Source of the DNA: Nemertoderma westbladi
Taxonomy: Eukaryota > Animalia > Xenacoelomorpha
Direction: 5' to 3'
DNA: 38,589 bases
Assembly: GCA_032718475.1 (NCBI GenBank)
Contig: JAUCBJ010003614.1
Coordinates: 1-38,589, forward strand
The position numbers were made by a program, and so were the translations under genes. Positions 6,486 through 37,342 of the stretch are shown here, in pieces. Within the stretch, counting starts at the first letter, position 1, and every line of letters begins with the position of its first letter. The notes under the pieces are model-generated. The model saw only the letters and a program-made list of their open reading frames with translations. It was not told the origin of the DNA and did not search any database.

Positions 6486-6777
6486 ATGGATGACACCGTA
6501 CTCTTATCTACCAGCAGGTCAATGTGTATCAAAAAGTTCAACTGTGTTTTAGAGTTCTGTAAAATTTCTGGTATTGCAATTAATGGGAAAAAAACTAAAT
6601 TTTTCGTTATATCGTTATGCCTCTGACAGAGTTGATATGATATTCGAATCTATAAAAATCGCACATTGTACTAGGTATATATACTTAGGATCACCCTTCA
6701 CTGAAGATGATCGATTGAAACGGGTTTTATCTATACATTAGATATAAAGCGGTAGGCCATTGCCAGTGGTTTTATTT

Positions 6778-6970
6778 AAATAATAATAAATATAAATTAC
6801 CATAAGCAAAGTATAGCATATAGGTAAGTATTAGGGGTCTACACTGGCTGATTATAATGAAACGCTGAATTTGGTGAACGTTTTCGCCCTACCGGGCTAC
6901 GTCAGACCTACAGTATTATATTAATAAAGTATAATGGAGTAATTAAATTCAATTCGAAATTCCCGCCACC
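6778..6970 (-). repeat. Inverted pLTR copy (partner at 14882-15072)
   Basis: Near-perfect reverse complement of 14882-15072, apart from small indels and about one substitution. Confidence 0.92.
6873..6908 (-). ncRNA. Minimal type I hammerhead ribozyme (PLE-type)
   Basis: Minus strand reads ggt-CTGACGTA-gccc(ggta)gggc-GAAA-acg-TTC-acc. Confidence 0.7.
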
Positions 6971-7099
6971 ATCGACGATCACGAAAACGAAAGAGAACCC
7001 AATTCCGGACGTTTCTACCTACCCTGCACCGCACAACTCAGAAATAAATTCAGATCCATCACGAAAAGACATTTACACGGAAGCGACCTTAGAATCAAC

Positions 7100-7591
7100 G
7101 TGATAACCAGCAATCCCGACTCCCTGGGACAAATGCTTATGAACAACAAGACTATCGTATCGACTTTGCGACTTGGTAATCACCCCTGTAAGACACCGGG
7201 ATGTCTAACATGCCAGCATATCACTAACGTATCGCAAACTCCCTGGGGCGATAACATACACGGGCGGTTTAATTGTAAAACACACCATATAATATACATT
7301 GCCTGGTGCTCCTTACACACCCCTAGCTTTTACATCGGCAAAACAATACAACATTTAAATGAGCGAGTCAACGGCCACCGTAATATGGTTAAGAACTACC
7401 CAAGTAAAGCGAATGACTTCAAAACCCACGATGATATCCTTCTAGCAAGACACCTCTATGGTTGCGGAATGCGGTGTTTCCGCATTTGCGCATTTAAATA
7501 CTTTGGGAATACCGTTGAGCTACTCGCAGCGGAGGGACTCCTAATCAAAACTCATCGTCCGCCCCTTAACGTCTACCAACCTACACTTTAG
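7100..7591 (+). pseudogene. GIY-YIG endonuclease, C-terminal remnant of the PLE ORF
   Basis: PCKTPGCLTC...FNCKTHHIIYIAWC...FYIGKT...LNERVNGHR...LARHL...EGLLI...PPLN: the Cys-rich linker plus GIY-YIG layout typical of PLEs. No RT upstream. Confidence 0.85.
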
Positions 7592-10620: not shown

Positions 10621-11467
10621 TCATTATTCACTTATTACTCACAGCGCACTTATTCATTAACCTAACTATAATCTATACAGTAGATGCTATAGTTTTATCT
10701 TAATTAACTAAGGATTGCTTTGAGCTGTTTTATGTTTCACTACCTTTGGACTATATATGTATGGGGGAATTTTGGAATTTGGGTTTTGGAGGGAATGTTG
10801 TTATACTGAGTAGAAACTGAGCGTTTTGGGGTATTTTTTTTTTATAATAATAGTACGAGAGTTACTTAGAGACAGGATTAGCTTTTTACGTTATGTAAGT
10901 TTGGATAAAAATCTATTTTATTCTGGAGACTTTTGTTTTTTGACTTTGTTTTTTTGACTTTGTTTTTGACTTTGTTTATATAATATTACACGAAGTGGGG
11001 CCTTCGCGCAGCACGTGACTTAAATTTAATTTAAGTACTAATTCGAAAGTATTACTGTATTAGCAAATTTTAAGCAGATTTCGCCTAATCACTTTTTACC
11101 TCTTTCATTTCTATTCAGACATTTCTGACTCTAGCGGTATAGTGAGAACTGAAGATGGATTAGGGTCTCCAGCCCCACAAAGACACAGCCTATGGATGAA
11201 TAGTACATACGTACATCGGCCAAGTTTCATCTTGAATAACGGATAACGAAATGAGAGACGGATCTCACTTTCAGAAATTTCGTCGTATAGCGGCAGACCG
11301 ATTAAATCCCCCCCCCCCCCCCCCCCACAAAGACGCAGCATGTGGTCCAGAATATATGGCAAGATTCAGCTTAAACTGATTAAAATCAATGAGACGGGAG
11401 AATCTATTCACTTTCAGGCATAAAGTAGTCCTATAGCGGGTGACTGTTGAACTGATTTTCAACAAAA

Positions 11468-14400: not shown

Positions 14401-14675
14401 GCGGCAGACTGGAGAACTGCAGATGGATTCGCCTCCTTTGAAAGTCACAGCTAATGGTCTAATACATATCTGCCAAGTTTCACCTTAAACGGATTAAAAG
14501 CAAAGAAATGGGAGGGCATTTAATGTTTAGACATGTGGCCCTCTAGCGGGAGACCATTGCACTGATGGTGTCTGAAAGTCTCTCAAAAATCTCAACTTTA
14601 GCTCATATTGATACCTACAAATTTTCAACTTGGCAGCTTTAAATCCGACAAAGTTATTAGCATGTCAAAATCGTA

Positions 14676-14680
<5 letters not shown>
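11468..14680. repeat. Highly homogeneous satellite, 10 full 315-bp units plus a partial unit
   Basis: attttcaacttggcagctttaaat at 11471, 11786, 12101 ... 14621. Confidence 0.98.
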
Positions 14681-14713
<33 letters not shown>

Positions 14714-14881: not shown

Positions 14882-15072
14882 GGTGGCGGGAATTTCGAAT
14901 TGAATTCAATTACTCCATTATACTTTATTAATATAATAGGTCTGACGTAGCCCGGTAGGGCGAAAACGTTCACCAAATTCAGCGTTTCATTATAATATTC
15001 AGCCAGTGTAGACCCCTAATACTTACCTATATGCTATACTTTGCTTATGGTAATTTATATTTATTATTATTT
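14882..15072 (+). repeat. PLE 3' pLTR, sense copy
   Basis: Reverse complement of 6778-6970; abuts the right direct repeat. Confidence 0.9.
14939..14974 (+). ncRNA. Minimal type I hammerhead ribozyme (PLE-type)
   Basis: ggtCTGACGTAgcccggtagggcGAAAacgTTCacc: stem I ggt/acc, stem II gccc/gggc, palindromic AACGTT stem III, predicted cleavage after C14971. Confidence 0.7.
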
Positions 15073-15625
15073 ATCTATACAAGTAGAGCGATGCACAGAG
15101 GACATAAACAAGTTTTCAATTTTTTGTGTGAACAAGAGTGCTATGCCTTTTCGCCTGAAATTAAGAGAATTTGAAGCGTGTGTAATGTGTACGCTTCTCT
15201 ACGGATGTGAATATTGGTTTAAAAATGACCTACATAGCTTGTAAAGTGCCTCTTAGGAGGAGTCCTCATACAGACTCCCAACGATATTGTGCTTGGCTGA
15301 GCTAGGTCTACCGCCAATTGAAGTTGGGTATCTACCGCATGGAAAAGATTTCTTACTAAAATTATACTTATTCTCTTTTATGGCTAGCATTTACCAAATT
15401 GCGACTTATTTCTCATAACCTCCGTATCGAAACAGGCTGGTTGAGTAGAATACCCTGAGATTCCAAGAGTATGTCATTGTGATAACTTGGTCGTCCAGAG
15501 AGAGCAACATAACATGTATTACTCGATTGCCTGCTCTCTGAACCACTGGGTCTAAATTTAACACCGATTTTAGATTTTAGCGACATGGAAGCATTAGTTT
15601 CAATGCGCTCAAAAAATGACCACAC
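15070..15625 (+). mobile_element. Decayed host LINE, right part (post-RT region)
   Basis: SIQVERCTEDINKF...EACVMCTLLYGCEYW continues ...LKRVLSIH from 6737. Confidence 0.75.
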
Positions 15626-18004: not shown

Positions 18005-18644
18005 TGTGACGGTATCCACTGGAGTTGACAGTGGTGTATACCGACCGGTGTAGGTTGTACTCGTCGTCGCGTCGCTGGGCTGCTGAGCTAAGGTGGATAT
18101 ATATGTTTGGCCAATGGCCGATAAAAACAACAGAGTTAGTTGTCAGTATTGATAATCACAGCAATTGATAATAGCACAGTCTGAATATAATAATATGCAA
18201 TACAAACAGTAACGGTGACGACGGTCAAAAACTATTCCGGTCTCACAACCGTAAGGAAATCAACTAACTAATAATCAGTAATTACAAGGGTTATATCGTT
18301 GACACATATTACTTTAGCCCTACACACTGGGCGGCCTTAATATCCAATGGATGGGCTCTTGTCCTAGCCAATGTGCTTTCCCGACCACTATTGGCCTATC
18401 CTGATTAATTGTCACCTCGCCATTCCCTGTTGGCATTACCCCTTGGTGCTAGCCTTACTAGCTTGTTTCTCCCTCTGAGGTAGTTTGACCTCACCTCTCT
18501 CTGTGGCTTATGGCGTGTATCATCCCCCCCCCGTTTAGTTATGAGTTGAGATTATTATTGGTAATCTCACATCGCCAACTATATTGGTAAAATTCCACTA
18601 GTCCCATTTTCGGTGGGTAATGCACGGAATTGAATATGCTTACA
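18005..18644 (-). repeat. 3' LTR of element B (640 bp)
   Basis: Minus strand TGTAAGCATATTCAATTCCG...CCGTCACA, with termini like the A LTRs. Preceded by a G-rich PPT (18645-18654). Similarity to the duplicated intron stops at 18004. Confidence 0.88.
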
Positions 18645-19334
18645 CTCCCCCCCCATGCTATCTTCCCGGTGAGAAGATAGCATCAACCTTAAGTGCGCTT
18701 CAATTCCGCTGGAATCCAATCTAATATTGGATGTGGGGTGGAATTTTCTTCTCGGGGTCGGCTTTCCAGACCGGCCCCCATGGGTCTGTTATCACTACCC
18801 ATCCTTGGTACATCTGCGAGCTATGTTGTACCAAGGTATCTGGCGTCTCTGTTTAAGATCATTGCTCTCACTCTTCACACAATTTTCCTCAAATTTTCCT
18901 CACAGACTTTGTTGTCCCTTCCTCTCTCACCAGTCCCTTTGGGACTCATCCTCTTCCATGCTCACCCCCCACACTTGAATCTCGCACTTCCTCAACTCTA
19001 ACACCTCCTCCCCATACTTCCCTCATTTCCCCACACTCAACCCACACTCAACCCACATCTATTGTTATTCTCCACACTCTTATCGACTCCCACGCATGTG
19101 TGCACCATGTCAGTGAGATCCGTCTAATGTCTCATCCTCCTAGTTTAGTCAATTGGTCCCCGATCCCAGTAGCTAGTTGGAAAAGGTTATATATGACTAT
19201 AGTACTTACATTGATTATATTTGCTATTAATTAATTATTTTACGTATGTACATACAAATTGTAAATACATTTAATTAATTGCAGTTAGGAGTTTGTACTG
19301 TTCCGTTCATGTGGTGCCTTCCAGGCACACCCAT

Positions 19335-19902
19335 TGTTAGCGTATTCAATTCCGCTAACCAGGCCCACACAAAGTTGGTTTTAAGCAATATTGGGAGCAC
19401 GAGGTTGGTTACCAATCAACCTCGTGTCATCCCAATAAGCGGGGACAACAGGCCCCAAGGGAACACACACAGCGGGGTCAGAGGTTACACCTCCGGGAGG
19501 GAGAGAGAGACAGCAGCAGGGGGGAAGCACTCCCAGGGAGATGGGAGGGTGAGAAGTGAGTTATTAGCCAATGGGGGGAAGGCATCGGCTGAGTAATGTA
19601 ATGCGGCCAACCGATGCAATATATTACCGGTATCTGTGTTATTTGCTCACTTTAGCTAGTCAGTGCAGTCAGGGCGGAACGGGAACTTCTATCACCGTCC
19701 ACTACCGCCACCACATGCAATACTTATTAGCGGTATCTGTTAATCCTATACTCAATACTGTGCTCAGTTTACTTATTCAATATATCTCATATACATCAAT
19801 CAAAGAACTTCAGAACTCTTAACGAACCTTTTCATATACACGGCGGGGACGCGTAGATCGAAAACCCAAACGGATAAATCGGGATCTGTAGATCCCGTCA
19901 CA
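19335..19902 (+). repeat. 5' LTR of element A (568 bp)
   Basis: TGTTAG...GTCACA. About 10 substitutions and 2 indels versus the 3' LTR, counted by eye. Confidence 0.97.
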
Positions 19903-19948
19903 GTGATAGAAGCCAAACTGCCAGAACTGCCAGCTAGTTAGTAAAGCA

Positions 19949-22900
19949 ATGAGTCGAGAAGGAGAGACGACACCGCCGCGGACCCCGGATGGCGACCTAA
20001 CGATCCGCGAGGCTGCGACGCGACGGTACAGACCTACGACGCCGGACCCATCGATAACGGGCGATCCGGCAACCAAAGATGAGGGGGGCCATCTACAACC
20101 AAGAGACGAGTCGGGAGAGGAGAGAGATGAGTCGACACACAGCGGCGGTCGACGTGCCGATGTCGCCGGCCAGCCACAGGCCGAGGGCGACGGACGGCCC
20201 ACCGGAACGGCGACGGTGGGGCCACCGGTACGACGCCGGACCCGGAGGGATGAAGGAGATGTCGGCGATGAGGACGTCGGGGTCAGCGACTGGCTCCGAC
20301 GAGCCTACGCCACGACCCGGAAGCAGTTGAGAGAGGCCAAAGGAGGGGCGAAGATAGACGAGGTGAAGTTGATGAAACGACTAGGTGAGTCGAACAGACA
20401 TTTTGATTACCTAATGCGTTTTGGGCAGAGAGAACTAGCCGATGAGAGAGCGAGAGGGGTTGCCAGCGAACTGTTCGAACTATGGGAATGTAGGGGTATG
20501 GAACCTAGCGTAGTGTACGTAGGGCCATACTTAGTCGATGCCTGGGGAGTAAAATTGGTGGGTTGGAGGAGACCGCAGGAGAGCGAATCCGAGGTTAACC
20601 CCGAGGATTCGGTCTCGTTGGTAGGGGAAAATTCCGGGAGGCGGGGGAAAGTTAGTGGGACGGGAAGGCGACGGGAGTCCGTCGCGACCGATAAGTCCGC
20701 TACATCCTCCGCAAAAGAAAGACAGGTGCGGGAAATAGATCTGGCGTGCCAGCTCGATCTGGCGGCGCTAGACCAGAGGGAACTAGAGAGACAGTTAGAG
20801 GAAGGGAGTGCGTTATTAGAGAAGGAGAAAGAACTGGTTAGAGTGAACAGAGAGAGGGCCGAGAAGGCCACGAGAAGCTTTAAGAAGTGCGAGGAAATAG
20901 GGGGGATAGAAAGGAAGGAGCAAGAAGAGCGCGAGGCGAGAGAGCAGAATAGACGTGAAGAGTGTGAGGCGAGAGACCAGAGTGAGCGAAAAGAGCGTGA
21001 GGCGAGAGAGCAGAGCGAGCGAAAAGAGCGCGAGGAGAGACGACTGGAGAGAGTTGCGAGAGAGGTGGAATTAGCCGACCAGAGTGCGCGGGAGGATCTG
21101 GAAAGAGAGGCAAAGGGGAAGCGTGTGCGGGATGATTTGCATGCCCGCCTAAGGGGGCTTATTCAATATCAAGCCAAACAGAAGCGCAGACTGGAACTAG
21201 CGCAGATGGGATTGTCAGAGAGCGAGACTGGCTCGAGTATTTACGAGGAGCCAAGGGCTGTGGAAACGTTTATTGGTGCCCCACTTACCGGGACCGCACG
21301 ACAGACCCAAGACTGGTGTGACCGTACGGGCGGGGGGGGGGGGGGGGGGGGTAATAATACGGTAGATAACGTTAATATTAATAGTACCGTATTGGATAAT
21401 TCTAACCAAACTTTCATTGCAGGAAATATTTTACCTAGTAGTAGTAATTTAAATTTAAATACAAATAATTCAAATAATCCGAATAATCCGAATAGTCCTA
21501 ATTCAAATAATATAAATTTACAAAATATTTCAAATAATATAAATTTACAAAATAATTCAAATAATATAAATACGCAAAATAATTCAAATAATCTTATTTC
21601 GAACGAACAAAATAATTCCGTTTCTAATTTAGGCGTGCAAAATAATTTAATTGATTTGGAGGATTTAATTGATTTAACGGGCGATACTAGTAATGGTGCT
21701 ATTAATATAAACGCGGCGGGCGCAGACGGCCCGACAAACGAGGACCTGGTAGGCCACGCAGTTAATAGGCAGGGAGTGTCCCACAAGCGTCGGCGGATAG
21801 TGCGCGGGGCGAATTAGGTGAACCGCAGCACCCGGCGATGGAGAGTAATAGGGGGATTACGAGTATCCCCAGCGGCGTGCGATCGAGCAGAGAAAAGCAG
21901 GTTGACGTCGCGAGAGGGTGAGCGACAAGGCGTCGAGCCCAATCAGAAGAGGGAAGAAGAACAGTGGAGTTTAACCGGGAGGTCAATGAGAGATCTCACG
22001 ACCGGGGATACTGCACTACAGAGAGAAGAAAGGAAGAGAGTAGAAGAAGTGTCGCCGCGAACGACAGGAGAGCGAGGACGGATAGCGAGCCATCGGTAGT
22101 AGAGGTGGAGATGGAGAGTCAGTGGGGTCGAACTTCGGGAGATTGCCGTTGTCCCGGAGGAACGCGACCTGACGGAGGCGTATTGCGTGGAGAGAGAGGA
22201 CGAGAGCAGTAGAGGGGGTCGAAGAGAAACTTCCCGACGGGATATACCTACCGATCGAGAATACGGTAGCCGCGGGGAGGATTATTCGAGAAGGATAAAC
22301 TTTGATCCCGAGCGATACATACAGACTGCAGGACATACTGTAGGCCTTACTGCACATACCATAGGCCATGCTGGGAGAGATAATGTAGGCGATAGGATAG
22401 CGCGAACAACGGGATTAAACCCGGAAGTCGCGGAGTACATACCGGCAGGTAGGCCAGAAGTGGATAGGCCTATACCAGTACCAGCACAGCAGTATGACTA
22501 CAGCATGCAAGGACATAACATATACCCAGGGGAGGGGAGAATTATTGCAGATAGGTGTATGGGCCCCAATATATTAACATCAACCCCAGTACCAAACATA
22601 CTGGTGGGGGGGGGGGGGGGGGGGGACAGGGTGACATTCCCCCATCACAATATCAACAATATACCCCAATAGGAGTAAGAACATCAAACCCCTTGGATGA
22701 GAATAGATCGTGCGACACAGAAATATGGAGGGGGCCGCTACCCCCAATGATATATCCAAGTCAGAGGAAAGCGGCAGACAGGACGAACGGACCGCACCCA
22801 ATGGGAGAACCTTTACAGCACCCATCGAACCCATTGGAAGCGCAAGCGATGGGGATGGCCACGTTAAGCGATGCATTAAAGACCAGGATCGAGTTACCAC

Positions 22901-23705
22901 CCATGGAACCATTCAAATTCGATGGAAGTAGGCCGGAAGAATACCTACAGTTTCGGCGCATGTATAGTAACGAAATATTAACAAAGAATTTGACGCAGGC
23001 GGAGTGCCTAAAGTATCTGCAAGTATATACAGGGGGCCCAGCATACGACATCGTGAGGCAATACCAGGGCATCGAGGGGGGCTTCACGACGGCATGGCGG
23101 GCATTAGACAGGGAATACGGGCACCCGACCAAGATCATCCGGCAGACCCTGAGAGGTATAACATCGGGTGGCCTACAGGATAACCCCATTAGCATAAAGA
23201 CATTCGCTAACAAAGTCGAGAAGTTGCTAATCGTACTAAAGACGCTGGACGCGCCATACAAACTCAACGCGTCTAACAACATCACTACGATAGCGCAGGC
23301 ACTACCGATTTGGCTGCGCAACAAGTGGAGAAAAATCGCTTTCACCACTCGAGATAGGAACGGTGCGGAACCGGGTTTAGAAGAGATGTCGAGCTTCTTA
23401 AACTATGACAACAACAAAAAATAACAACACAAATAAACATAACCCCAGCACGCCCAGTAGGCCGAACCCAAACAACAAGAATAGTATGGACTTTGGTACA
23501 AACATAAGTGCGATATGCAATGCACTTTATAAGGATGGCTACAACCCAAAGAGCAAATGCCAACTACATACAAATGCACTTCATCAGACCATGAACTGCA
23601 GGTATTGGTAAGCGCTACCCAGTGAAGATCAGGTAGAATACGCGAGGAGAAATGAAATCTGCTCGCGATGTGTGATGAGTGGACATAGAGCTAACCAATG
23701 CAAAG
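19949..23705 (+). pseudogene. gag: Gag of element A, disrupted: long charged/coiled-coil and Asn-rich N-terminus, DUF1759-like core, Cys/His knuckles
   Basis: MEPFKFDGSRPEEYLQFRRMY...AWRALDREYG...LPIWLRNKW, CQLHTNALHQTMNC and CSRCVMSGHRANQC. Frameshifts near 21780, ~22190, the 22606-22625 poly-G and ~23400. Confidence 0.85.
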
Positions 23706-23769
23706 AAACGCCAATTAAGTTCGGTCAGAGTAAAGGACAGACAATGGCAACGAGCACCGTAGTGGCGAG

Positions 23770-26700
23770 GAAGAGAGGAACGGTACTATTAGGGGTAGTA
23801 CCAGTAAGGGTAATCGGGGAAGGCAATCGATCAGTAACCACACTGATGCTGGTCGACAGTGGTGCAGCCTTCACCTTAGTTGAGGATTGGGTGGCCGAAG
23901 AGATAGGATTGAGAACGAGGCCAAGTAGAATGGCGGTAACAACCATCTCCAGCAAAGATGAGGTTCTGGAGATGAGGACCAGACGGTGCGCGATAGCAGC
24001 GATAGCACCGGGATGCCACTATGGGGCGACCATCAACCCCATCCAGGTGATAGAGTCGATAAATATCAACGCCAGGCGGCCAACCAACATCGAGGTCGAA
24101 CAATATAGATTCCTGGACAGTATCGACTTCTCAATCCCAGAGGTGGACGTTAGGAAGGTATCCATCATAGTAGGAATGGACTGCCCAACGGCCCACGAGA
24201 GAATGCAAACGGTCTTCGGCGAAGACAGGCAGTGTGACCCGGTGGCGATATTAACACCATTCGGGTGGACGCTAAGCGGCCCAATAAGGAGCAAAATACC
24301 ATTTAGGATGTCGGAGACATCAGGATGCATGTTCGCGGGAACTATGCGAGAAATGGGAGATGAGGGAGTGGAGGAGCAGCTCAGGAGACTGCTCAGGCAG
24401 GATTTTGAGGGATTAAAAGAGACCGGGGTCGGGACCTCAGTAGAAGACAAGCAGGCTTTACAAAGTGTAAAGGAATCGATGACATGCGATGAGGGGCGGT
24501 ATACCATAGGAATGGTATGGAAGCTACCGAAGCTACCGTTACCCGACAATAAAGGGATGGTACTCACAAGGCTTCGTAAGTTGAAGCAGACGCTAAAACG
24601 GAGCCCCGAGAAGAATGAGTACATTCATAAGACAATCAGGAAGTATGTCGAGAAAGGATGGGCCGTGGAGTTACCGGTCGACAAACCAAGAACGGACAGG
24701 ACCTATTACCTGCCACTCCACGTGGCTCTAGACCCGAAGAAAGGTAAACTGCGGATGGTAGTTGACGCATCGGCCAAGACCAACGGAAAATGCCTAAACG
24801 ATTATCTGCTGGAGGGTCCCAACATCTACAACTCAGGGATCGAGGTCCTACTCAGATTCAGGAATGGTAAACACGCTTTGACTTGCGACATCGAAGGCAT
24901 GTTCAACCAAGTCTGTGTAATGGAAGAGGATAGCGACAGCCAGCGCTTCCTATGGTACGACGGCGATGAGGAACCTAGTTCCAAGGAATGGGTCCCGGAT
25001 GAGATCAGCAAGCAATGGAGCAAGTGGACAGAGAGTTTAGAGCAGATGGGAACATACAGCATGCCACATGTATATTTCCCGGATGGGGACATGACGAATC
25101 TGGATCTGTACATGTTCTCCAATGCGTCATTCGAGGCATACGGAGCGGCACTCTACTTAGTACAACGAGAGGGGGCTCACAAGCCCAGACTCGCATTCAG
25201 CAAAGCGAAGTCGACGCCACCAGATTCAGCATCAGTTCCGAAACTCGAGTTGACAGCTGCGAGATTAGGAGTTAGGGCCACAGCCTACTTAGTGGACGCT
25301 ATTCCCAACATAGTGGAAACACATTACTGGACGGATTCCATGGTAGTGCTCGGTTGGCTACATAACGAAAGGACGAGATACCCCATATTCGTCGCAAATA
25401 GGGTGGACGAAATAAGGGCGACCACAGAGTTAGAAAGGTGGCACTACCGCCCAACGGACGAGAACCCGGCGGACTTGTTATCGAGGGGCGTGGCACGCCA
25501 CACTTTCTTGAGGAAGGAAGTATTGTGGCAGCATGGGCAGCAATTCCTGAACGATAAGACAGCCTGGCCGCCGATGAGAAAGGTGGACCCGGGCGCAGAA
25601 CAAGTAGCGTTAGAGGAGGAGGGAGTAGATTCAGAAGGTGAGGAGATATATAGCCAGATGGTGAGGGAGATAAGGGACGTGCAACCGAAACCGGAAGAAC
25701 TGTGCGATAACCCAACGGACAAACTCCTTAGCTACAGCTCTAGTTCGTATAAGACCAAGAAGTTAGTGGCGTACTGGAGAGCCTTCGGGGACTTCCTTAG
25801 GGGAACCGGTAGAGATACAAAAGGTAAAATAACCGTCGATCTGGAGGGGGCGGCCAAAGCCGTCATCCACTACGAACAGAGGAAGAATTACGGCAATGAG
25901 GTGGAACGCGTCGGTAAACAACACCATCTCTGATGGGACAGCGAGCTGATCGCACTGTCACCACAACTCAATGATGACGGGATCCTAGTAATGAACTCTA
26001 GGGTGTTGAACAACAACAGTATTGTCATCCCAACAAAGCCCATCATCATCCCTAATGGATCACCGATAGTCCATCAGATCATCTGGGACTCCCATAAGTC
26101 GATATTGCACGGGGGCACCAACCGAACCCTCACGGAGATACGAAGGACCTTTTGGGTCAAACAGTTGAGAAAGAAGGTAAAGGCAGTAGTGGGGCAGTGC
26201 CAGACCTGCCGACGAGCTAAGAAGGAGTGGGCCATACAGGAAATGGCACCACTACTGGCCAGTAGAGTAAGACAGCACGACCCGCCATTTACGCATTGCG
26301 GTGTGGATATGTTTGGGCCGATAAAGATTAAGGTGATGCGACACACGGGAAGCGCTACGGCATCATCTTCGTATGTAACAACACATGGGCGGTAGGGTTA
26401 GAACTCGCCCAAGATGCAACCGCATCAGCATTCATTAAAGCTCTAGAAAGGTTCAGAGACCGCAAAGGTGGGACGATCGCAGTAATATATTCTGACAACG
26501 GAACCAACTTTATGGGGGCAGAGAACGAGATGGCGGATGCCTTAGATATCCTGGAAGGGGAAGAAGTCAGGGCAGCCATGAGAAGACGACAGGTGAAGTG
26601 GGAGAGGAGAACGCCGTATGCTCCACATACTCTAGGATGCATCGAGAGACTAGTGGGTAGTTCCAAGCGTCTGATGACGAAATTGATGAACACCCAAATG

Positions 26701-27194
26701 GTAACAGAGGACGTGCTGAGGATGGTACTAGCAAAGTGCGAGGGTATCATTAATAGCAGACCGCTATATCCAGAAAATGATGACCCGGAGTCATTAGACG
26801 TGCTGACGCCCAGTCACTTTCTAATGGAGAGGCCAGCGGCCATCGACATGCGGGGTGTAGACCCAGACGATATACACTCCTGACAGAGTTGGAAAGTCGC
26901 TAAGGCGATAAGCGCAGAGTACTGGAGGAGGTGGGTCGAAGAATATCTACCCACGCTTCATAGGAGGAGCAAGTGGTGAAATACAAATAGGGAGTTGAAG
27001 GAGGGTGATCTGGTGATCGTCACAGACGATAACATCATCAACAACCAATGGAGATTGGCGAGAGTTGTGGGCACTTACTCCGATGAGGATGGATAGTGCG
27101 GATAGGTGGGAAAATAGGAGCGAAAGATAGAAAGACCTATAGAAGGGCTGTAGGCAAGTGCTGCCTACTAGAGGGAGCACCTTAAACGAATAGA
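23770..27194 (+). pseudogene. pol: Pol of element A: protease, internally deleted RT, RNase H, integrase
   Basis: LVDSGA; TPFGWTLSGP; YYLPLH...LRMVVDAS...LNDYLLEGP...DIEGMFNQV...RFLW; FSNAS, PKLEL, WTDS, NPADLLSRG; HHCC, GVDMFGP, SDNGTNF, ERLV. Stops at 25931 and 26881, frameshift ~26348. Confidence 0.95.
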
Positions 27195-27309
27195 GTTTAG
27201 TCATCCAAGTTTTGGACTGAGGGGGGTGGGATTGAGGGCGAGACGCCCTTCCCACACATAAAATATAAAAAAAATAATAAATAAAGAAAGAGTAAGCAGG
27301 CAGATGGAA

Positions 27310-27785
27310 GTTAGTAAGAGTTAGGCAGATAGTAAGAGTTAGTAGTTAGAGGGTACATAGTACCGTTAGTTAGTTAAGTAGTTAGAAGGTATGTAGTACC
27401 TCTTATTAGTTAGTAAGAGTTAGTAGTTTGAGGGTACGTAGCACCGCTAGTTAGTTAGTAAGAGGGTACATAGTACCGTTAGTTAGTTAGAGAGAGTTAG
27501 AGTTAGTAAGAGTGTACGTAGTACCGTTAGTTAGTTGGAGAGAGTTAGAGTTAGTAAGAGGGTACGTAGTAGCGTTAGTTAGTTGGAGAGAGTTAGAGTT
27601 AGTAAGAGGGTACGTAGTACCATTAGTTAGTTAGAGAGAGTTAGAATTTAGTAAGAGGGTACGTAGTACCGGTTAGTTAGTTAGTGGAGTTAGAGGTTAG
27701 TGAGAGTGTACGCAGTACCGTTAGTAGAAGTTAGTTAGAAGTCAGTAAGAGGGTACGTAGTACCGGTTGGTGGAAGTTAGTTAGA
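27310..27785. repeat. Minisatellite (~45-bp unit) in the pol-ORF3 spacer of A
   Basis: Repeats of ttagtaagagggtacgtagtaccgttagttagttagagagagttagag. Confidence 0.9.
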
Positions 27786-27870
27786 AAATTGCAATTTAGG
27801 GTACAATTTAGCACTTTTAGAAATTAAATAGAAAAAATTAGGCTATAACTCAAAATTAAGTAAGAAATAG

Positions 27871-27975
27871 GCCATTGTCGAACTGTACAGACCATCTTAA
27901 ACTTATCACTCATCTGTACTGCGCCTTGGCAAGGCACCACCTTACAGGTGAGCGAGTGAGAGAGTTCGGAATGGC
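27871..27975 (+). promoter_or_regulatory. Predicted structured RNA element enclosing the ORF3 start codon (A)
   Basis: GCCATT..CGAACT/AGTTCG..AATGGC, CTCATCTGTA/TACAGGTGAG and GCCTT-ggc-AAGGC. Same fold with different sequence in B. Confidence 0.6.
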
Positions 27976-30540
27976 GGGGAAACTGATCAGGAAGAGAAAG
28001 GCGGAGTCAGGAGGAAAGGAAATACTGGTGGATTTCACCAAGAGGCATCCAGAAGAGAAGACGAGGGGATACTACGAGCGGTTAGAGAGAGGTCACACAG
28101 CGCGAGCGCTACAGGACCATTTCAGGGAGGTGCACGAACAGCGGCTGGTCAGGACCTACGGGACGCCATCGCTGGACAACGCGATCTTCGAGCATTTCCA
28201 ATACATGGTGAAAGGAGACGAGGCGAAGTTTGGGATTCCGAAGTACGCGAGAGAGCCACCGAGGAAAGATTGGAAGAGGTTCGTAGAGTCCGTCAGCAGA
28301 GAAGGGTACATGGTCCTAGATGATGAGGGGACCGTGGCAGATGAGGAGGGTTCGAGGAGAGGATCGGCGGGGTCAGCCAGAACCATACTCCTACATTTGG
28401 CCGCGCCAAATGGGGATATATTCCTATTCGATCTAGGAACGTATGGAAAGAAGGACGGGCCGAAGTTGAACTGGTTTCCGAAGGCGGTGCAAACCCTAGT
28501 GAGAGAGAAGTCGACGACGAAAGTGGGATCGGCGATTCGCGACGACGCGGAGAGAATCATCGGTCCGGACACCCCGAACCTTCTGGATATGCAGACGGTC
28601 TATATGGCTATGACAGCACCAGACGGGTTGGGACTAGTGGAGAACACAGGACATTGCGGGGCGGTGGCAATGGGCCATCTAATGGGGCTCGTGTGTCACA
28701 AACCGATGGACTGGAGTAAGTTCAGCGAGGAGTACGGAGCGGACTTGGCGAACTCGCTGAAGTGGGGAGCGAGGCCAGGGAGACAAGAGGTGTATCAATT
28801 CCGGAGAGGAGCGATAAAGGTATATCAGAAGCGATATATCCTACAGGAGGACTGGATAATGATAGGTTTGCTTAACCTATTCATGACCGTGGTTATCGAG
28901 AGGGAACCAACGGCATTCCTATTATCGGGATCACCCCTAAGCTACAGAAGAGCCTTTAAGACGGCTTTCGAGGGTCTGGTAGACCACCCGGGGCTGAAGG
29001 GCGAGTCGGTGTACTACAACAGCCGACATCTGGTAGACGGGGAGGTAGATACGCCATATCAGAGGTGGGAGCAGCTAGAGACGGATAGACGAGAGGCGAA
29101 GCGATTGGAAGAAATCGCTAGACAGGAGAGGAGAGAAGCAGAGGAAAGGGAGGAGGAAGCTAGGGCACAGAGCTACGGCTTCGAGGACCAGGCGGCCTTA
29201 GACAAACTTCGTTGGACATCGTCAGGGAGTTCGGGGGAGTCTCTCGGGCGAGAATTAGGATGGACGGTGGGATCACCGAAACAGTCGACGTCGGGATTGC
29301 AGACGACGCCCATATCAGCGGGCGCCGAGGGCGATCAGCCGCTAAGGAGGCTAGGGGAGCTGGAAGGATGGAAAGTTACGGGCGAGAGCCAAGGCGGGAA
29401 GGGACACAGTGGGTCCACCGGGATACCGGGGTTGGAGCCACTGCCAGAGGAGGACGAGGACGACGACGAGTTCGGAGAGATGCCGCCCATCGGGAGGATC
29501 AGCCACTCGGACACAGACTGGGTTGGCGGGAGGGTGGTGACGGCCAGTGGGGCGAGAGCCTTCTGGGATAGACCCGGCAAGCGGGCCTGGGTGCATGAGG
29601 ACCCAGCGATGGATTTCACGGGGAGCACTATCAGGTTGGGCGAGCAACCGGGCACGGCACCACGGGTAGTATTCGGGGAGACGATGCCCGGGAGGGGCGA
29701 GGAGATCGACATAGACAGGGACGCTAACGTCCGGAAGTTCGCTTACCAGCGACTCCACAGACCGCGGAGATCGCTTGGGACGAAAGACGATGTGGGGCGG
29801 GAGACATTGGTGCTTGGCTGTGACTACTGTGGGAGACAGACCCATCAGGAAAGGAGCTGTTTGTACCGGTTCCAGAAAGGGACTAGTTGTCTCTACTGCC
29901 ACGAGTCGAGCCACAGGATGGGGGCGTGTCCACGGTTGCACAACTGGTGTTCGAAGTGCAACTTTTGGGGACACTATACGGACGCCAGTGCGACTGGATG
30001 GACGACGAAGAGAAGTTTAGGATCTTCGAGGAGTGGGCCGACGTCGGAGCCATGACTCGGCAACGCATGAAGGCCCAGGAGTTCCGGTGGGGCTTCTTTA
30101 ACATCAATCAGGAGGCCCACATGGAGATTATTAAACGGAGGCTTCCGTTTACTTACCAGGAAGTGGCGACGGCGGCGTCGTATGCCGGAGTGATAAATAC
30201 GCAGAGGTATTTGGACAGGTGGATGCCACAGAACAGAGGAGAGTTCAGGGATTTCTTGGTGGAGCATGTGCCGCGGGCGATGAAAGTGATCCTATGGGAC
30301 GCCACCAGGGGGAGACAACAGGGCCACTCGGAGGGGCCACCCGCGAAGCGATACCAGGAGCTAATAACACCAGCGCCCAAGGAGTCGACGACAGGGATTA
30401 GTAAAGAGGTGACAGCGAGGGTCAGGAGCCTGAAAGCAGACAAGACCAAAGGAGCGGCAGTGACCAGGAAACGACCAAGGGAGGAGGACAATAGAGGGAA
30501 AGAGTTGAGGTGGTTCCCAAAGGCAGGTGGAACGAACTAA
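27971..30540 (+). pseudogene. ORF3 of A: DEDDy-like 3'-5' exonuclease + coiled coil + 3 CCHC knuckles (2-bp frameshift at ~29975)
   Basis: ATG 27971 matches ATG 34408 of B. Motifs VLDDEG, LLHLAAPNGDIFLFDL, KVGSAIRDDAERI, LLDMQ, QKRYILQED. Knuckles CDYCGRQTHQERSC, CLYCHESSHRMGAC and, after repair, CSKCNFWGHYGRQC. Confidence 0.8.
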
Positions 30541-31223
30541 GACATCCGTGTAATATGCTTGGAAGGCACCACGCGAGACGTGCGAACTCCTAAGTACGAA
30601 TTCAAGTAATTTAAATAATTGAAAAGTGCAATTAGTATGTACGTACGTAGTAATCATTATTAGTTTAGCAAGTAAATACAATGAAAGTAAGTACTATAGT
30701 CGTACAACCTTTTCTCAATTAGCTACTGGGACTGGGGACCAATAGACTATAATACTATCACGGACGAGACACTGGACGACATCACACTTCTTGAGTGCGA
30801 TGGCACAGGAGGGGGGTGAACTCGTCGGGAGTGAGTGGGTGAGATAGGGGTTGAGTTGTAGTGCGGAGAGAGTGTGGGTGCAATTCAAGTGTGGGGGGGG
30901 GGAGGAATAAGAGGCTGAGTGAGGGACAGGGAAGTCCGAGAGTTAGAGCGGAAGTGGGGAGAAGTAGAGGAGAGTCAGGGTGAGATGAGTGGAGTTGGAG
31001 TGGCGAAAGTGTTGGGGAAACAAAAGTCGTGTGAGAGGAGCACGCGATCAGCCCGACACGGGATGCCAGGTAAACAGGGTAGCGATATCATACCCATAGG
31101 GGGCGGTCTGGAAAGCCGGCTCCGAGAAAAATAGTTCCACCCCACACTCGATGCTAGGTCGAGATCCAGCGGAATTGTAGCGCACTAGAGGTGGATGCTA
31201 TCTTCTCACCGGGAAGATAACAT

Positions 31224-31239
31224 GGGGGGGGGGGGGGAG
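31224..31239 (+). other. Polypurine tract of A
   Basis: G14-AG immediately before the 3' LTR TG. Confidence 0.9.
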
Positions 31240-31790
31240 TGTTAGCATATTCAATTCCGCTAACCAGGCCCACACAAAGTTGGTTTTAAGCAATATTGGG
31301 AGCACGAGGTTGGTTACCAATCAACCTCGTGTCACCCCAATAAGCGGGGACAACAGGCCCCAAGGGAACACACACAGTGGGGGTCAGAGGTTACACCTAT
31401 GGGAGGGAGAGAGAGACAGCAGCGGGGGGGAAGCACTCCCAGGGAGATGGGAGGGTGAGAAGTGAGTTATTAGCCAATGGGGGGAAGGCATCGGCTGAGT
31501 AATGTAATGCGGCCAAGGTATCTGTGTTATTTGCTCACTTTAGCTAGTCAGTGCAGTCAGGGCGGAACGGGAACTTCTATCACCGTCCGCTACCGCCACC
31601 ACATGCAATACTTATTACCGGTATCTGTTAATCCTATACTCAATACTGTGCTCAGTTTACTTATTCAATATATCTCATATACATCAATCAAAGAACTTCA
31701 GAACTCTTAACGAACCTTTTCATATACACGGCGGGGACGCATAGATCGAAAACCCAAACGGATAAATCGGGATCCGTAGATCCCGTCACA
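31240..31790 (+). repeat. 3' LTR of element A (551 bp)
   Basis: Direct repeat of 19335-19902 with an 18-bp deletion. Confidence 0.97.
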
Positions 31791-34408
31791 CCCATACCCC
31801 TGTTCCTGAGTTCTAATTTGCTCCTCCCGTCTTGGGAACCATCTGTGTTCCTTGCCCCTATCGTCATCTTGCCTGGGCCGTTTTCCTCCTTCCTTTTTAT
31901 CCTTGAGGCTACTCATCCTCGTCAATACCGTCTTACTAAGTCCCGTCATTGGTTCTTTGGGCGCAGGTGTTATCAACTCCCGGTATCACTTTGCAGGTGG
32001 TCCACTGAGTGTCCCTCCTCTTTCCCTCTGGTAGCATCCCACAAGATCATCTTCATTGCCCGCGGCATGTGCTCCCCCAGAAAGTCCCTAAATTCGATTC
32101 TATTTTCTGGCGACCACCTGTCTAGGTATCTTTGAGTGTTAATGACCCCTCCGTATGATGCTGCTGTCGCTACCTCCTGATACATGAATGGTTGTCTCCT
32201 CTTGGTGATCTCCTGGTGGGCTTCCACGTTGATGCTAAAGAAGCCCCACCGGAACTCCTGTGCCTTCATCCTTTGTCGTGTCATGACTCCGACGTCGGCC
32301 CACTCCTCAAAGATCCGGAACTTCTCCTCATCGTCCATCCAGTCGCACTGACGCTCAAAGTTCCCTCTAAACTTGCACTTTGAACTTCTGTTCTGCAAGT
32401 GGTAGTAGAGACACGCCGCCCCCTTCTGGAAACGGTACAGACAGTTCTTTTGCTGGTGGGTTAGTCTCCCACAGTAATGGCAATCGTGTACCAGTGTGTC
32501 CTGCCCCAAGTCGTCCTTGGCTCCGCGTGGCCTTCTGGGTCTATGGAGTCGCTGGTAGGCAAACATCTGGACGCTGTCCTCCCTACCCATGTCGATGTCC
32601 TCCTCCATCCTCGGCATTGTTTCCCCAAACACTACCCATGGTGCCGTTCCCGGTTGCTCGCCCAACCTGATCGTACTCGCCGCAAAATCCATCGCCGGCT
32701 CCCCGTGCTCCCAGGTCCGCTTACCGGGTTTGTCCCAGAAGGCTCTCGCCCCGCTGGCCATTGCCACCCTCCCGTCCACCCAGTCCATATCCGAGTGGCC
32801 GATCCTCGCTATCGGTAGCATAGCCCCGAATTCGTCCTCCTCCTCTTCTCCTGCTGGGGCCGCAATCCTCTCTATCGGCGGCATCGCCCCGAACTCATCC
32901 TCTTCTTCCTCTCCTGCCGGGAGTGGATCTGAACCCGGTAGCCCGGTCGATCCACTGTGTCCCTTTCCACCCTGGTATCCGCCCGTAACCTTCCACCCTT
33001 CTAGCTCCCTCCATCTCTTCCTCCCAATGTCGCCTTCAGAGCCCCCTGGCATGGGCGTTCCTTGCAACCCCGAGATGTTGACTGTCTCGGTGCTTCTTCC
33101 ATCCAACCCAGTTCGTCCTCCAGTCGAAACTCGTCTGAGGTCTCTGATCCCCACCTCCCCAATCTTCCGTTCTCGATCTTCCAAGAGTTGGGCTTCGAGC
33201 TCACGCTCCTCTCCCCTTATATCCGCTTCTCTTTCCGCTGCCTCGCTCCTTTCTCTCCTGGCAACCTCCTCTAGTCTCCTCTCCTCGACCCTATCCGCTT
33301 CCAGTTTTTTCCATCGTTTGTACGGTGTGTCTACCTCTCTGTCCACTAGGTGTCTGGTATCGTAATATACCGCCTCGCCCTTCAGCCCCGGGTGGTCTAC
33401 AAGACCTTCGAAGGCCACCTTAAAGGCTCTCCTGTGATTCAGAGGTGCTCCTGATAGTAGAAATGCCGTCGGCTCTCTCCCGATAGTCACCGTAATGAAT
33501 AGGTTTAATAAACCTATCATTATCCAATCTTCCTGTAAGATATATCTCTTCTGATATATCTTTATCGCTCCCCTCCGGAACTGATATACTTCCTGCTTTC
33601 CTGGTCTCACTCCCCATTTCAGCGAGTTAGCAAGTTCCGCTCTGTATTCTTCCCAAAACTTGCTCCAGTCCATCGGCTTGTGGCAGACGAGCCCCATGAG
33701 TTGGCCCATCGCCACGGCTCCACAATGGCCCGTGTTCTCCACCAATCCCATCCCCTCTGGTCTCATCATAGCCATATAGACTACTTGCATGTCCAGGAGA
33801 TTGAACGTGTCCGGTCCAATAATCCTATCCGCATCGTCGCGGATTGCCGATCCCACCTTGACCATAATTTTCTGTCTCACTATGTCCTGCACTGCCCTCA
33901 GCAACCCGTTTAACTTCGGCCCGCTCTTCTTTCCGTTGGTCCCCAGGTCGAATAGAAAGATATCACTGTTCGGCGCTGCCAAATGCAGCAATATAGTTCT
34001 AGCCGATCCCGCCGACCCCCTTCTCGAGCTCTCGTCATCCTCCACAGTCCCTTCGTCGTCTAGGACCATGTAACCACCCCTCTCCATGGAATCTACAAAT
34101 CTGCTCCACTCCTTCCTCGGTGGTTCCCTCGGATACTTCGGTATCCCGAACTTCGCCTCGTCTCCCTTCACTACGTAGCAAAGATGCTCATGGATTGCGT
34201 TGTCCAACGACGGCGTCCCGTAGGTCCCGACCAGTCGTCGTTCGTGCATCTCCCTAAACTGGTCCTATAGCGCATGTGCTCTGTGACCCTTTGGCAGTAG
34301 TTTGTAGTATCCCTTCGTCTTCTCCTCTGGATGCCTCTGTGTGAAGTCCACTAGCAACTCCTTTCCAGTCTTCTCCGACTTTCTCCTCTTTACTAACTTC
34401 TCCGCCAT
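31791..34408 (-). pseudogene. ORF3 of B (homolog of A ORF3); last codons lie at 19285-19334
   Basis: MAEKLVKRRKSEKTGKELLVDFTQRHPEEKTKGYY. TAG at 34265-34267, 63-bp duplication, deletion in knuckle 2, frameshift ~32000. The frame continues ...QGYG|CAWKAPHERNSTNS-stop across the TSD. Confidence 0.85.
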
Positions 34409-34509
34409 CACGAATCAACTCGCTCTCACTTAACTGGTGGGGCCTTACAAAGGCTCAGTTCAAGTGAGGGTCGTCAAACAGAATGCTGACTGTTCCATTC
34501 AGTGATGGC
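34404..34509 (-). promoter_or_regulatory. Predicted structured RNA element enclosing the ORF3 start codon (B)
   Basis: GCCATCAC(T)GAAT/ATTCGTGATGGC, CTCACTT(G)AACTG/CAGTTAAGTGAG and GCCTT-tgt-AAGGC. Confidence 0.6.
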
Positions 34510-34904
34510 CTACCTCCTATGCTACGTTTCTTTCGGTATATTTGCACAAATATACACCCCTACGTGTCAATTTCTCCTAATTTGTAATTTTTGTCCATTG
34601 CTTTTATTAATGATTCTAGAATTTTCTCCCCCCAGTTGCCATAATTTGTTAATTTGTTAATTTTCTATTTTCATTTTTATTTATATTTCCCCATTCCGTG
34701 TGCTATTATTAACTGTCTGTCATTGGCTTACTTACTTGAGTATCCCCTCTACTTGTATAAAGAGAAGACTAGCTACAATTTTCTCATTGCTGCGCTAGCT
34801 TCCTACCAGACAGGTTTCTGGCGCTGTAACAATACCCTATGTCTGTACTATGGGCTGTGTGGTACAGTAGTCTATTTCGTGCAGCCTACACGGTCAATCC
34901 TACT

Positions 34905-35175
34905 ATGCCCACATGCCCCCCTCTTCCCTCCGTCGTGCCCTCAGTGCCCACAAGTTCTACGGTACTGTGTACTCTTCTACTACGGTATTGTACATACCCC
35001 AATTCCTCACATGGCGCCCTCAGTGCCCACAAGTGCTACGGTACTGTGTACCCTTCTACTACGGTATGCGTACATACCCCCCAATTCCTCACGTGACACC
35101 CTCAGTGTCCACAAGTTCTACGGTACGTGTATCCTTCTACTACGGTATGCGTACATACGGTACTACGGTACGTAA
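34905..35175. repeat. Tandem repeat (~80-bp unit, ~3 copies) in the pol-ORF3 spacer of B
   Basis: ccctcagtg(c/t)ccacaagt...tactacggta recurs at 34938, 35017, 35098. Confidence 0.85.
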
Positions 35176-35427
35176 ATTAGGTACATTGGTACATTATTGT
35201 ACCCTTCCAACGTACATAATTGTAACTACCTACATTGTATATTATGTACATTGGTACATCTCTACCCATCAGATGTACATAATATCTACTATCTACCTAC
35301 AGCGTACCTTGGTACTAAGTACTTATTTCATTATTTTGCTTATTTTTTATGTTTATTTTATGTCTGGGAAGGGCATCTCGCCCTCATTCCCACCCCCCCT
35401 CAGTCCAATATATTGGACGACTCAACT

Positions 35428-37342
35428 CTAAGGCGACCCTTCCAATAGGAATTACTTTCCTACCGCCCTCCTGTAGGTATTCCTATCTTTGGCCCCTATC
35501 TTTCCTCCGATCCTTACTTCCACGGATCTAATCCTTCCATCCTCGTCGGGGTAGGTTTCTACTACCCTAGCTAGTCTCCACTGGTTATTGGTAATTGTGT
35601 CATCCGTGACAATTATCAAGTCACCCTTCTTTAGTTCCCTTTGGCTATTCTTCCACTTACTCCTTTTATGTAGTGTTGGAAGGTACTCCTGTATCCACCT
35701 TGTCCAATACTCTGCTCTTATCATCTTAGCGACTTTCCAACTTTGACGCGAATGTATATCGTCTGGATCCACGCTTCGCATGTCAATCATCGCTGGTCTC
35801 TCCATGAGTACGTATGCTGGTATGAGGATGTCCAGTGATTCTGGGTTGTCGTTCTCGGGGTATACAGGTCGACTATTAATAATCCCTTCACATTTCGCCA
35901 GCACTGTCCTCAATACGTCCACTGTGACCATGTGATTATTCATCAGTTTGGTCATTAGTCCTTTGGAGCTTCCCACAAGCCGCTCTACACACCCTAGTGT
36001 ATGTGGCGCGTATGGTGTTGTCCTTCCCCACCTTATTAGGTGTTTCCTCATCGCCGCCCTGACATCTTCTCCCTCCAGGATGTCGAGGGCCTCCGCTAAC
36101 TCATTCTCCGCGCCCACAAAGTTAGTCCCGTTGTCTGAGTATAATACCTCAACCGTCCCTCCCCTGCGGGTTACAAACCTCTCTAGTGCATTGATAAATG
36201 CCGACGACGTAGTCTCCTGGGCTAGTTCTATCCCCACTGCCCTAGTATTATTGCAGACGAAGATAATGCCGTAGCGTTTCTCCGTATGCCGCATCACCTT
36301 TATCTTAATCGGCCCAAACATGTCCACGCCGCAGTGTGTAAATGGTGGGTAGTTTGTTTGTTGTATCTGTTTGCCGGTAATGGCCCCATCTCCTGTACAT
36401 CCCTCTCCTTCTTCGTCCGTTGGCAGGTCTGGCACTGCCCCACTACCGCCTTTACCATCTTTCTGAGTTGGATAACCCAGAATGTCTTCCGGATCTCCGT
36501 CAGAGTCTGGTTAGTGCCCCGATATAGTATAGATTTATGGGAATCCCATATGATCTGGTGGACTATTGGTGACTTGTTGGGGATTATTATCGGTTTTGGT
36601 GGAATGACTGGGCTGTTGTTGTTTACCACCCTGGAATTCATCACCAGGATCCTGTCATCGTCCAATTGTGGCAACAGTGCGTTGAGTTCGCTGTCTTGAC
36701 GAAGGCGTTGTTGCTTGCTGACTCTGTTCACTTCGTCCCCGTACCCCTTCCTTTGCTCGTATCGTATCACGGCTTTGGCCACCCCTTCCAGATCGATAGT
36801 GGGTCTCGTTTTGGTATCCTTACCAACTCCCCTGAGGAAATTTCCATAGGCCCACAGATGTGCTACCAGCTTCTTAGTCTTATACCAGCTGGAGATGTAA
36901 CTGAGCAACCTATCTGTTGGGTTGTCGCACGGCTCTCTAGGTTTTAGTTGCGGTGGCACTTCCTTAATCTCCCTCGCCAATTGGCTGTATATTTCTTCCT
37001 CCTCCGATTCCTCTCCCTCCTCCTCCACTGTCACTTCCTCTGTACCTGGGTCTACCTTCCTCATTGGTGGCCAACTCGACCTATCATTAAAGAAGTGCGG
37101 CCCATGCTGCCACAACCGCTCGAGAAATGCTTTCTCGAGAAATCGTGGCATACAATGCCCCTTGATAGCAGATCTGCTGGATCGTCGTCGTTTGGGCAGT
37201 AGTGCCACTTTTCCAGATTGGTCATTGCCCTTATCTCGTCCACCCTGTTTGCCACAAATATAGGGTAATGTGGCTTCTCGTTATGTAGCCATCCTAACCC
37301 TACCATAGAATCTGTCCAGTAGTGCATCTCTACTATACTCGG
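35428..37342 (-). pseudogene. pol: Pol 3' part of B (RNase H end + integrase), frameshifted
   Basis: HYWTDS, DPADLLSRG, GVDMFGP, SDNGTNF, GCVERLV, WTRWIQEYLPTL, WRLARVVETYPDEDGRIRSV. Confidence 0.93.

Follow-up and report, generated by a model that had tools for sequence, protein, structure and literature searches.

A BEL/Pao retrotransposon in the genome of Nemertoderma westbladi carries, downstream of its integrase, a third open reading frame (ORF3) whose product very probably contains an exonuclease domain of the RNase D/WRN type, followed by CCHC zinc knuckles. The exonuclease domain is under purifying selection, and ORF3 is a standing part of a large, multi-copy family. An exonuclease with knuckles in a BEL/Pao element, with a Glu in the ExoIII motif and a C-terminal domain of no known family, appears to be undescribed; already known are a DEDDy third ORF, in rotifer gypsy elements, and the pairing of an Exo domain with CCHC fingers, in trypanosome RNase D. 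The window, the whole stretch of DNA analysed, is 38,589 nucleotides long (contig JAUCBJ010003614.1, assembly GCA_032718475.1) and contains two related LTR elements, A on the + strand and B on the - strand.

Element A (19335-31790) is a BEL/Pao retrotransposon sitting inside the 3' UTR of element B, since B resumes beyond A and runs down to a polypurine tract (PPT) and 3' LTR of its own. A has the direct TG...CA repeats, short target duplication and PPT of an LTR retrotransposon. Its 5' LTR (19335..19902) starts with TGTTAG and ends with CCGTCACA, its 3' LTR spans 31240..31790, and the target duplication CCCAT stands just before the former (19330-19334) and directly after the latter (31791-31795). 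The two LTRs align with 539 matches and 10 mismatches over 549 aligned bases, plus 19 gap columns. The window retains, all on the - strand, the 3' part of B's pol with the integrase (35452..37336; PF18701 E 9.3e-25, PF00665 E 2.7e-6), a broken ORF3 (31813..34408) and, past the insertion of A, the remainder of the element (18005..19329), made up of 3' UTR, PPT and 3' LTR (about 18644 to 18005). B is 5'-truncated at about 37336, with the reverse transcriptase (RT) outside its surviving part. The identity between A and B is 72% across the integrase and 74% across ORF3, and both are defective copies.

Pao-type Pfam domains in the order protease, RT/RNase H and integrase bear out the assignment of the elements to BEL/Pao, a metazoan group (PMC3118150). 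In A, gag (19910..23700, + strand) is spread over several broken frames, with DUF1759 at about 22918-23328 (PF03564 E 5.7e-11) and a single readable CCHC knuckle near 23660. The pol region of A (23612..27186, + strand), also broken, comprises an aspartyl protease, a partial RT, the Pao Peptidase_A17 region (PF05380 E 2.1e-21) and an integrase (Integrase_H2C2, PF17921 E 1.3e-13; rve, PF00665 E 0.0011). A Y/F-x-D-D motif is absent from A's pol in all three frames, and stops are present. Peptidase_A17, DUF1759 and DUF5641 (PF18701) each pass the Pfam cut-offs, the last of them in B.

ORF3 of A occupies 27971..30540 on the + strand, from an ATG at 27971 to a stop ending at 30540. Its 2570 nt, or about 856 codons, imply one frameshift, which falls in the third knuckle; the open frames are 27860-30055 and 29887-30540. 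In B, ORF3 has an in-frame stop near 34267, a deletion in the knuckles and more breaks toward its 3' end. An earlier note on this DNA had described an ORF of about 850 amino acids between integrase and PPT in both elements; the position holds for both, but in neither is the frame intact. The motifs on which that note based its nuclease assignment were all recovered, namely VLDDEG at 28313, LLHLAAPNG at 28388, FPKAVQTLV at 28475, KVGSAIRDD at 28520, LLDMQ at 28580 and QKRYILQED at 28826. Its statement that ORF3 has neither a membrane anchor nor a signal peptide also agrees with our results: the best 19-residue hydropathy is 1.46 in A and 1.34 in B, below transmembrane strength, and the N-terminus is basic and not signal-like. 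No N-glycosylation sequon (NxS/T) occurs in the first frame of A's ORF3. With no membrane segment and no sequon in that frame, an env identity of ORF3 was rejected.

The predicted exonuclease domain covers 28259..28915 on the + strand, and residues 97-315 are assigned an RNase D/WRN-type fold with high confidence. When residues 90-345 were compared with the ESM Atlas, 24 of 30 matches fell in PF01612-type clusters (score 0.94), the top three being unnamed clusters; for the nuclease core, all 30 named matches were PF01612 (score 0.93, recognition 3404). A profile of 51 bacterial exonuclease domains (WRN-like, RNase D and PolA), containing no sequence from the window, was run over 234 six-frame segments of the window and ranked ORF3 of A (E 0.002) and of B (E 0.007) ahead of the next segment (E 2.0). 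The core of A scored 13.5 bits against this profile, as high as none of 2000 shuffles, which reached 2.7 at most. With HHalign, an alignment to the bacterial profile spanning 166 columns reached E 7.7e-5 in local and 1e-6 in global mode, with a score of 34.5, compared to 20.5 for the best of 60 column shuffles and 10.3 on reversal. Sub-profiles of 29, 15 and 7 sequences all scored the domain weakly and singled out no subgroup, and HHalign against a 4-sequence profile gave a probability of 3% and a misalignment. In absolute terms the profile scores are low (10-13 bits).

Pfam, PF01612 included, gave no match to the exonuclease domain at E values up to 10, and nothing matching it was found in NCBIfam, PHROGs or the PDB sequences. 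Word-index searches among longer and similar-length proteins (3227 and 1659 candidates) returned no relatives, and none were found in metagenome and viral contigs, plasmids or phages. No genuine relative of the N-terminal 385 residues was found by phmmer among 1.84 billion representatives; the single match, P0003, a TPR-repeat protein with 33 residues aligned, was dismissed as spurious. An AlphaFold model made from the sequences of A and B alone had a pLDDT of 32.6, whereas a model guided by the reference alignment reached a pLDDT of 73.8 and a pTM of 0.77. The top structural matches of the guided model are all DnaQ-like, with Z of 12-13.6 and all within about one unit, and include RNase D, WRN, Nibbler, TbRND, Exd1 and Egalitarian. 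Because DEDDy proteins were in the alignment from which the model was made, these matches are not independent, and the model shows compatibility with a DEDDy fold rather than independent proof of it.

Active-site positions were located in a MAFFT alignment of both ORF3 copies with 43 of the 51 bacterial references: D117 (28319), E119 (28325), D192 (28544), Y289 (28835) and E293 (28847), the last of which is Asp in the references. Eight of the 13 invariant columns are matched in both copies (D117, E119, K184, D192, K250, W265, Q286 and Y289), and three of the five that deviate lie within ExoIII. For the ExoI D-x-E, expected at the end of a hydrophobic strand, D117 and E119 stand on columns invariant in 43/43 references, and for the ExoII Asp, K184 and D192 likewise stand on invariant columns. 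HHalign instead aligned ExoI with D124/E126, another pair of conserved acidic residues. In ExoIII the Y-x3-D pattern is not found: Y289 is kept, and four residues on comes Glu (E293), with D294 after it. The earlier note had called QKRYILQED ExoIII-like; the sequence is YILQE compared to YAAxD in 43/43 references, and both copies are altered. The DEDDy-like nuclease of that note is supported for the fold, by the ESM Atlas and the bacterial profile, and not for a canonical ExoIII. The domain is DEDDy-like, with three of the four catalytic acids and the tyrosine kept. The altered ExoIII makes catalysis uncertain, and we lean towards a nuclease that is active despite the Glu at the ExoIII Asp position.

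About 300 residues separate the nuclease from the knuckles. They include an E/R-rich charged stretch at 29057..29176 (residues 363-402), judged by inspection as likely helical or coiled coil, which is the sole place where pLDDT rises in the poor two-sequence model. An acidic patch, EEDEDDDE, follows at 29447..29470 (residues 493-500), in accordance with the earlier description, and is doubled in B through a 63-nt tandem repeat. The CCHC knuckles of A lie at 29819..29995. Three C-x2-C-x4-H-x4-C knuckles had been claimed; those at 29819 and 29888 are complete in A, but in the third, from 29948, C-x2-C-x4-H is left and the frameshift removes the final Cys. In B a single knuckle is complete. Contig pieces from other copies show an indel difference in the knuckle region, so the frameshift is not common to all copies. 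The best matches of the knuckles among PDB sequences, all weak (E at least 0.011), are retroviral nucleocapsid, TbRND and Lin28. Past the knuckles, and not mentioned in the earlier note, is a well conserved C-terminal domain (29986..30330), in which A and B share 85% identity (dN 0.089, dS saturated) and which had no match in Pfam, NCBIfam, PHROGs or the PDB sequences.

Over 193 codons in unbroken frames, the nuclease cores of A and B differ at 23, 15 and 88 sites in codon positions 1, 2 and 3, respectively. This corresponds to a dN/dS of 0.085 (Nei-Gojobori; bootstrap 0.039-0.138), similar to that of the pol linker (0.074), and the remaining segments of ORF3 have a dN/dS of 0.10-0.19 or a saturated dS. 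In four public runs, 38109, 21392, 19593 and 259 contig pieces matched element A at 80% or more; these depths do not give a copy number, and the element is not spanned by any single piece. All 30 bins of A, ORF3 among them, were covered in four of four runs, and this coverage together with the purifying selection makes ORF3 a standing part of the family. The family is highly diverse in these runs. Among 40 listed of 145 differences in the nuclease domain of other copies, 30 are at third positions and 25 are synonymous, including a synonymous difference at D117.

RNase D-like DEDDy ORF3s, with activity not shown, have been reported for the rotifer LTR elements Juno and Vesta and for Athena retroelements (Rodriguez et al. 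2017, PMC5408684), and according to a review Terminons carry a DEDDy ORF too (PMC6431247). The rotifer precedent given in the earlier note is thereby real; the nematode precedent named beside it is absent from PMC5408684, where the word 'nematode' does not occur, and was not found elsewhere. The rotifer ORF3s share with ORF3 of A and B the RNase D-like DEDDy domain, the env position in an LTR element, the lack of a transmembrane domain and the replacement of a catalytic Asp by Glu, giving DEED in rotifers and, by alignment, D-E-D-E here. They differ in that Juno and Vesta are rotifer-specific retrovirus-like lineages, whereas the host of ORF3 here is BEL/Pao; the rotifer DEDDy ORFs are stated to be without coiled coils, with no CCHC knuckles described for their ORF3. 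The rotifer ORF3 shows no departure from neutrality within the genome, in contrast to the low dN/dS between subfamilies found here. In the same paper the word 'Pao' occurs once, in none of the ORF3 passages covered.

The mitochondrial RNase D of Trypanosoma brucei, TbRND (PDB 7C42/7C45), has CCHC fingers behind its Exo domain that increase both the binding of single-stranded RNA and its cleavage (PMC7797062). Tandem CCHC motifs C-terminal to a DEDD Exo domain are common to TbRND and ORF3, the likeness being one of architecture only. TbRND matched the homolog-guided, and thereby biased, model with Z 12.7 and an rmsd of 3.5 over 181 aligned residues, and in the knuckle search it was a weak match (E 0.17). 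It is a cellular enzyme with four fingers about 30 residues from Exo and a canonical site, unlike ORF3 with its three knuckles, one of them broken, charged helix, acidic patch and extra C-terminal domain, and the TbRND-like architecture of ORF3 is likely convergent. The host genes Egalitarian, Exd1, Nibbler (Mut-7) and WRN belong to the same fold group by the profile and by the biased model (Z tied at 12.1-12.9), with 11-16% identity to ORF3.

Most BEL/Pao elements encode just gag and pol (PMC3118150). A third ORF after the integrase is present, as here, in roo and in mosquito BEL/Pao elements with a chuvirus-like glycoprotein (PMC13524379, PMC3118150), but there it encodes a fusion glycoprotein, in contrast to the ORF3 without membrane segment. 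In these two papers, env is the sole third gene mentioned for BEL/Pao, and the word 'exonuclease' is absent. Our literature search, which had Repbase, Dfam, subscription journals and supplements outside its scope, found no exonuclease ORF for BEL/Pao. The earlier note named no fusion of nuclease and knuckles in BEL/Pao; no report of one was found, although the fusion itself exists in the cellular TbRND.

Regarding function, we tentatively favour a reading in which ORF3 is an RNase D/WRN-type exonuclease with CCHC knuckles that trims RNA 3' ends, most likely blunting host small-RNA silencing. The knuckles would hold single-stranded RNA, as in TbRND, and the exonuclease domain would shorten it from its 3' end; if this RNA were a host guide RNA or an unprotected precursor, small-RNA silencing would be blunted. 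RNA is the putative substrate, and host guide RNAs or their unprotected precursors are the candidate target. Mature piRNAs are shielded from such trimming by 2'-O-methylation, which counts against a small-RNA target. It is favoured by the separation of ORF3 from gag-pol, as for a trans-acting factor, and by the fact that most BEL/Pao elements, with gag and pol alone, replicate without ORF3 (PMC3118150). This last point also speaks against the view, which we rate as somewhat less probable, that an active enzyme serves the replication of the element by trimming the 3' end of its own RNA, primer or cDNA in the particle. A self-made primer would need a 3' end flush with the duplex, of the kind that 3'-5' trimming of single strands could produce, and A has a candidate geometry for self-priming: the 10 bases at the primer-binding position (19903..19912, + strand), directly 3' of the LTR, exactly complement LTR bases 19686-19695, and the 10-mer occurred in 8 of 20000 shuffled LTRs. 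However, this match comes from one copy, the primer site of B being outside the window, and the Tf1 self-primer is made by RNase H alone. ORF3 also lies outside the polyprotein, so its packaging into the particle is not given. On the other side, the ORF3 knuckles are weakly like nucleocapsid fingers, Rodriguez et al. suggest 3'-end processing of element RNA (PMC5408684), and processing of cleaved 3' ends has been proposed for the DEDDy domain of Dada DNA transposons (PMC3706591).

Slightly less probable again is that ORF3 is a pseudo-nuclease or 3'-end holder, comparable to Egalitarian or Exd1, acting as an RNA adaptor that either binds the element transcript, for example at the conserved hairpins of its 3' UTR, or ties up small RNAs. 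The ExoIII change in both copies would fit such a role, as would the Foldseek list of the biased model, which is headed by Egalitarian and TbRND; but D117, E119, D192 and Y289 are kept in both copies, the fourth position is still acidic, and dead exonuclease relatives often lose several acids. The Egalitarian EXO domain retains all DEDDy residues without needing them: its binding of stem-loop signals, among them the one in the I factor retrotransposon, does not depend on the catalytic residues. Exd1, too, has no activity (bioRxiv 10.1101/2025.08.03.668247). A candidate ligand exists in that a 3' UTR segment is 82.5% identical between A and B, above the 72-74% of the ORFs, and has a hairpin (31147-31163) with 3 of 6 pairs altered on both sides, a covariation drawn from two sequences only. 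Proofreading of reverse transcription, by removal of mismatched DNA 3' ends, is very improbable, and the least likely of the three roles put forward in the earlier note (anti-silencing, cDNA end processing and RT proofreading). Polymerase proofreading domains do have the same fold and WRN-type members work on DNA (PMC5408684), but ORF3 is separate and has knuckles of RNA-binding type, the family is highly diverse, and the PolA-type sub-profile fits worst (E 0.85 compared to 0.017 for the WRN-like one, both profiles being small). We give equally little credence to a resemblance by chance, or to ORF3 as captured host DNA that is neutral, or as an env that has degenerated. Curated libraries give no family-level match and the profile scores are low, as such an origin would allow, but it is largely refuted by the strong purifying selection, the Atlas matches, and the profile and HHalign scores relative to shuffles; two independent methods agree on PF01612, ORF3 has the same position in two diverged elements and no membrane features, and it is covered in all four runs.

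A more specific proposal, doubtful as a whole, is that a highly amplified BEL/Pao lineage has built a TbRND-like DEDE exonuclease, with three knuckles and an undescribed domain after them, which destroys piRNA/siRNA guides or matures a self-made primer. If true, no nuclease accessory gene would have been shown to act for a BEL/Pao element before this one. The nuclease cargo in the env slot of rotifer elements has been described, but with neither an assay nor a demonstration of selection; ORF3 here is under clear purifying selection, belongs to a different LTR superfamily and has its own predicted RNA-binding module. The nuclease domain of A is unbroken and can be assayed as found. With an unbroken, selected domain, the role of captured 3'-5' exonucleases in retrotransposons becomes testable, that is, whether they act against small-RNA silencing, for the element's own replication, or as RNA-binding scaffolds.

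Two non-coding parts of the elements flank ORF3. Downstream, 31075..31239 on the + strand holds the PPT of A and the structured final part of its 3' UTR; the folding of the 3' UTR tail is no stronger than that of shuffles in A (z -1.02) and is modestly stronger in B (z -2.36). Upstream, the spacer of A (27200..27970, + strand) contains a 48-nt tandem array at 27453-27765 with 6.5 copies, and the spacer of B has at the same place a 79-nt array unrelated to it.

The BEL/Pao retrotransposon A (19330-31795) sits in the opposite orientation within B (18005-37336), a related element on the reverse strand, and its insertion point lies ∼20 bases past the stop codon of B's ORF3, the third gene, which is located between integrase and the polypurine tract. 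Contigs from two public sequencing runs of the source organism connect position 19330 directly with 31796, the short side of the junction being 22 letters, and represent either the empty site or further B-like copies. The YxDD catalytic motif is absent from the reverse transcriptase of A (24887-25000), where the DIEGMF region runs straight into the Peptidase_A17 region. Lacking this motif, A, a young copy, is likely non-autonomous. The gag N-terminal frame of A (19910-21817) is long (635 aa) and had no match in a Pfam search; it includes a helical segment rich in charged residues as well as a low-complexity stretch rich in Asn.

No tRNA-type primer site was evident downstream of the 5′ LTR of A. 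The first 10 bases past this LTR (19903-19912) are the exact complement of an LTR-internal 10-mer (19686-19695), a 10-mer that also occurs in 8 of 20000 shuffled LTRs, and the pairing has the geometry of a candidate self-made primer.

The 3′ UTR ends of A (31075-31239, forward strand) and B (18644-18802, reverse strand) share 82.5% identity in this comparison of only two sequences, which is above that of the ORFs. This end contains a hairpin with a GAAA loop, and a long hairpin lies immediately upstream of the polypurine tract; in another hairpin, both sides have changed in three of the six pairs between these two copies. The C-terminal domain of ORF3 (29986-30330) is as conserved as the nuclease domain, and was without a match in Pfam, NCBIfam or PDB.

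Elsewhere in the window, the reverse-strand stretch 1592-2389 has a SEA-like start by eye, followed by a Thr-rich stalk and a hydrophobic end; Pfam gave nothing significant for it, and it is possibly a host exon. A non-LTR reverse transcriptase fragment is found at 3354-4241 (Pfam RVT_1, E 3.8e-5, and DUF6451). Two inverted repeats of ∼190 nt (6777-6970 and 14882-15073), 96-98% complementary and spaced 8 kb apart, enclose a Penelope-like GIY-YIG fragment (6947-7591; PF01541, E 1.5e-7) and two satellite arrays, one with units of 152-160 nt (7725-10646) and the other with 11 units of 315 nt (11352-14688).
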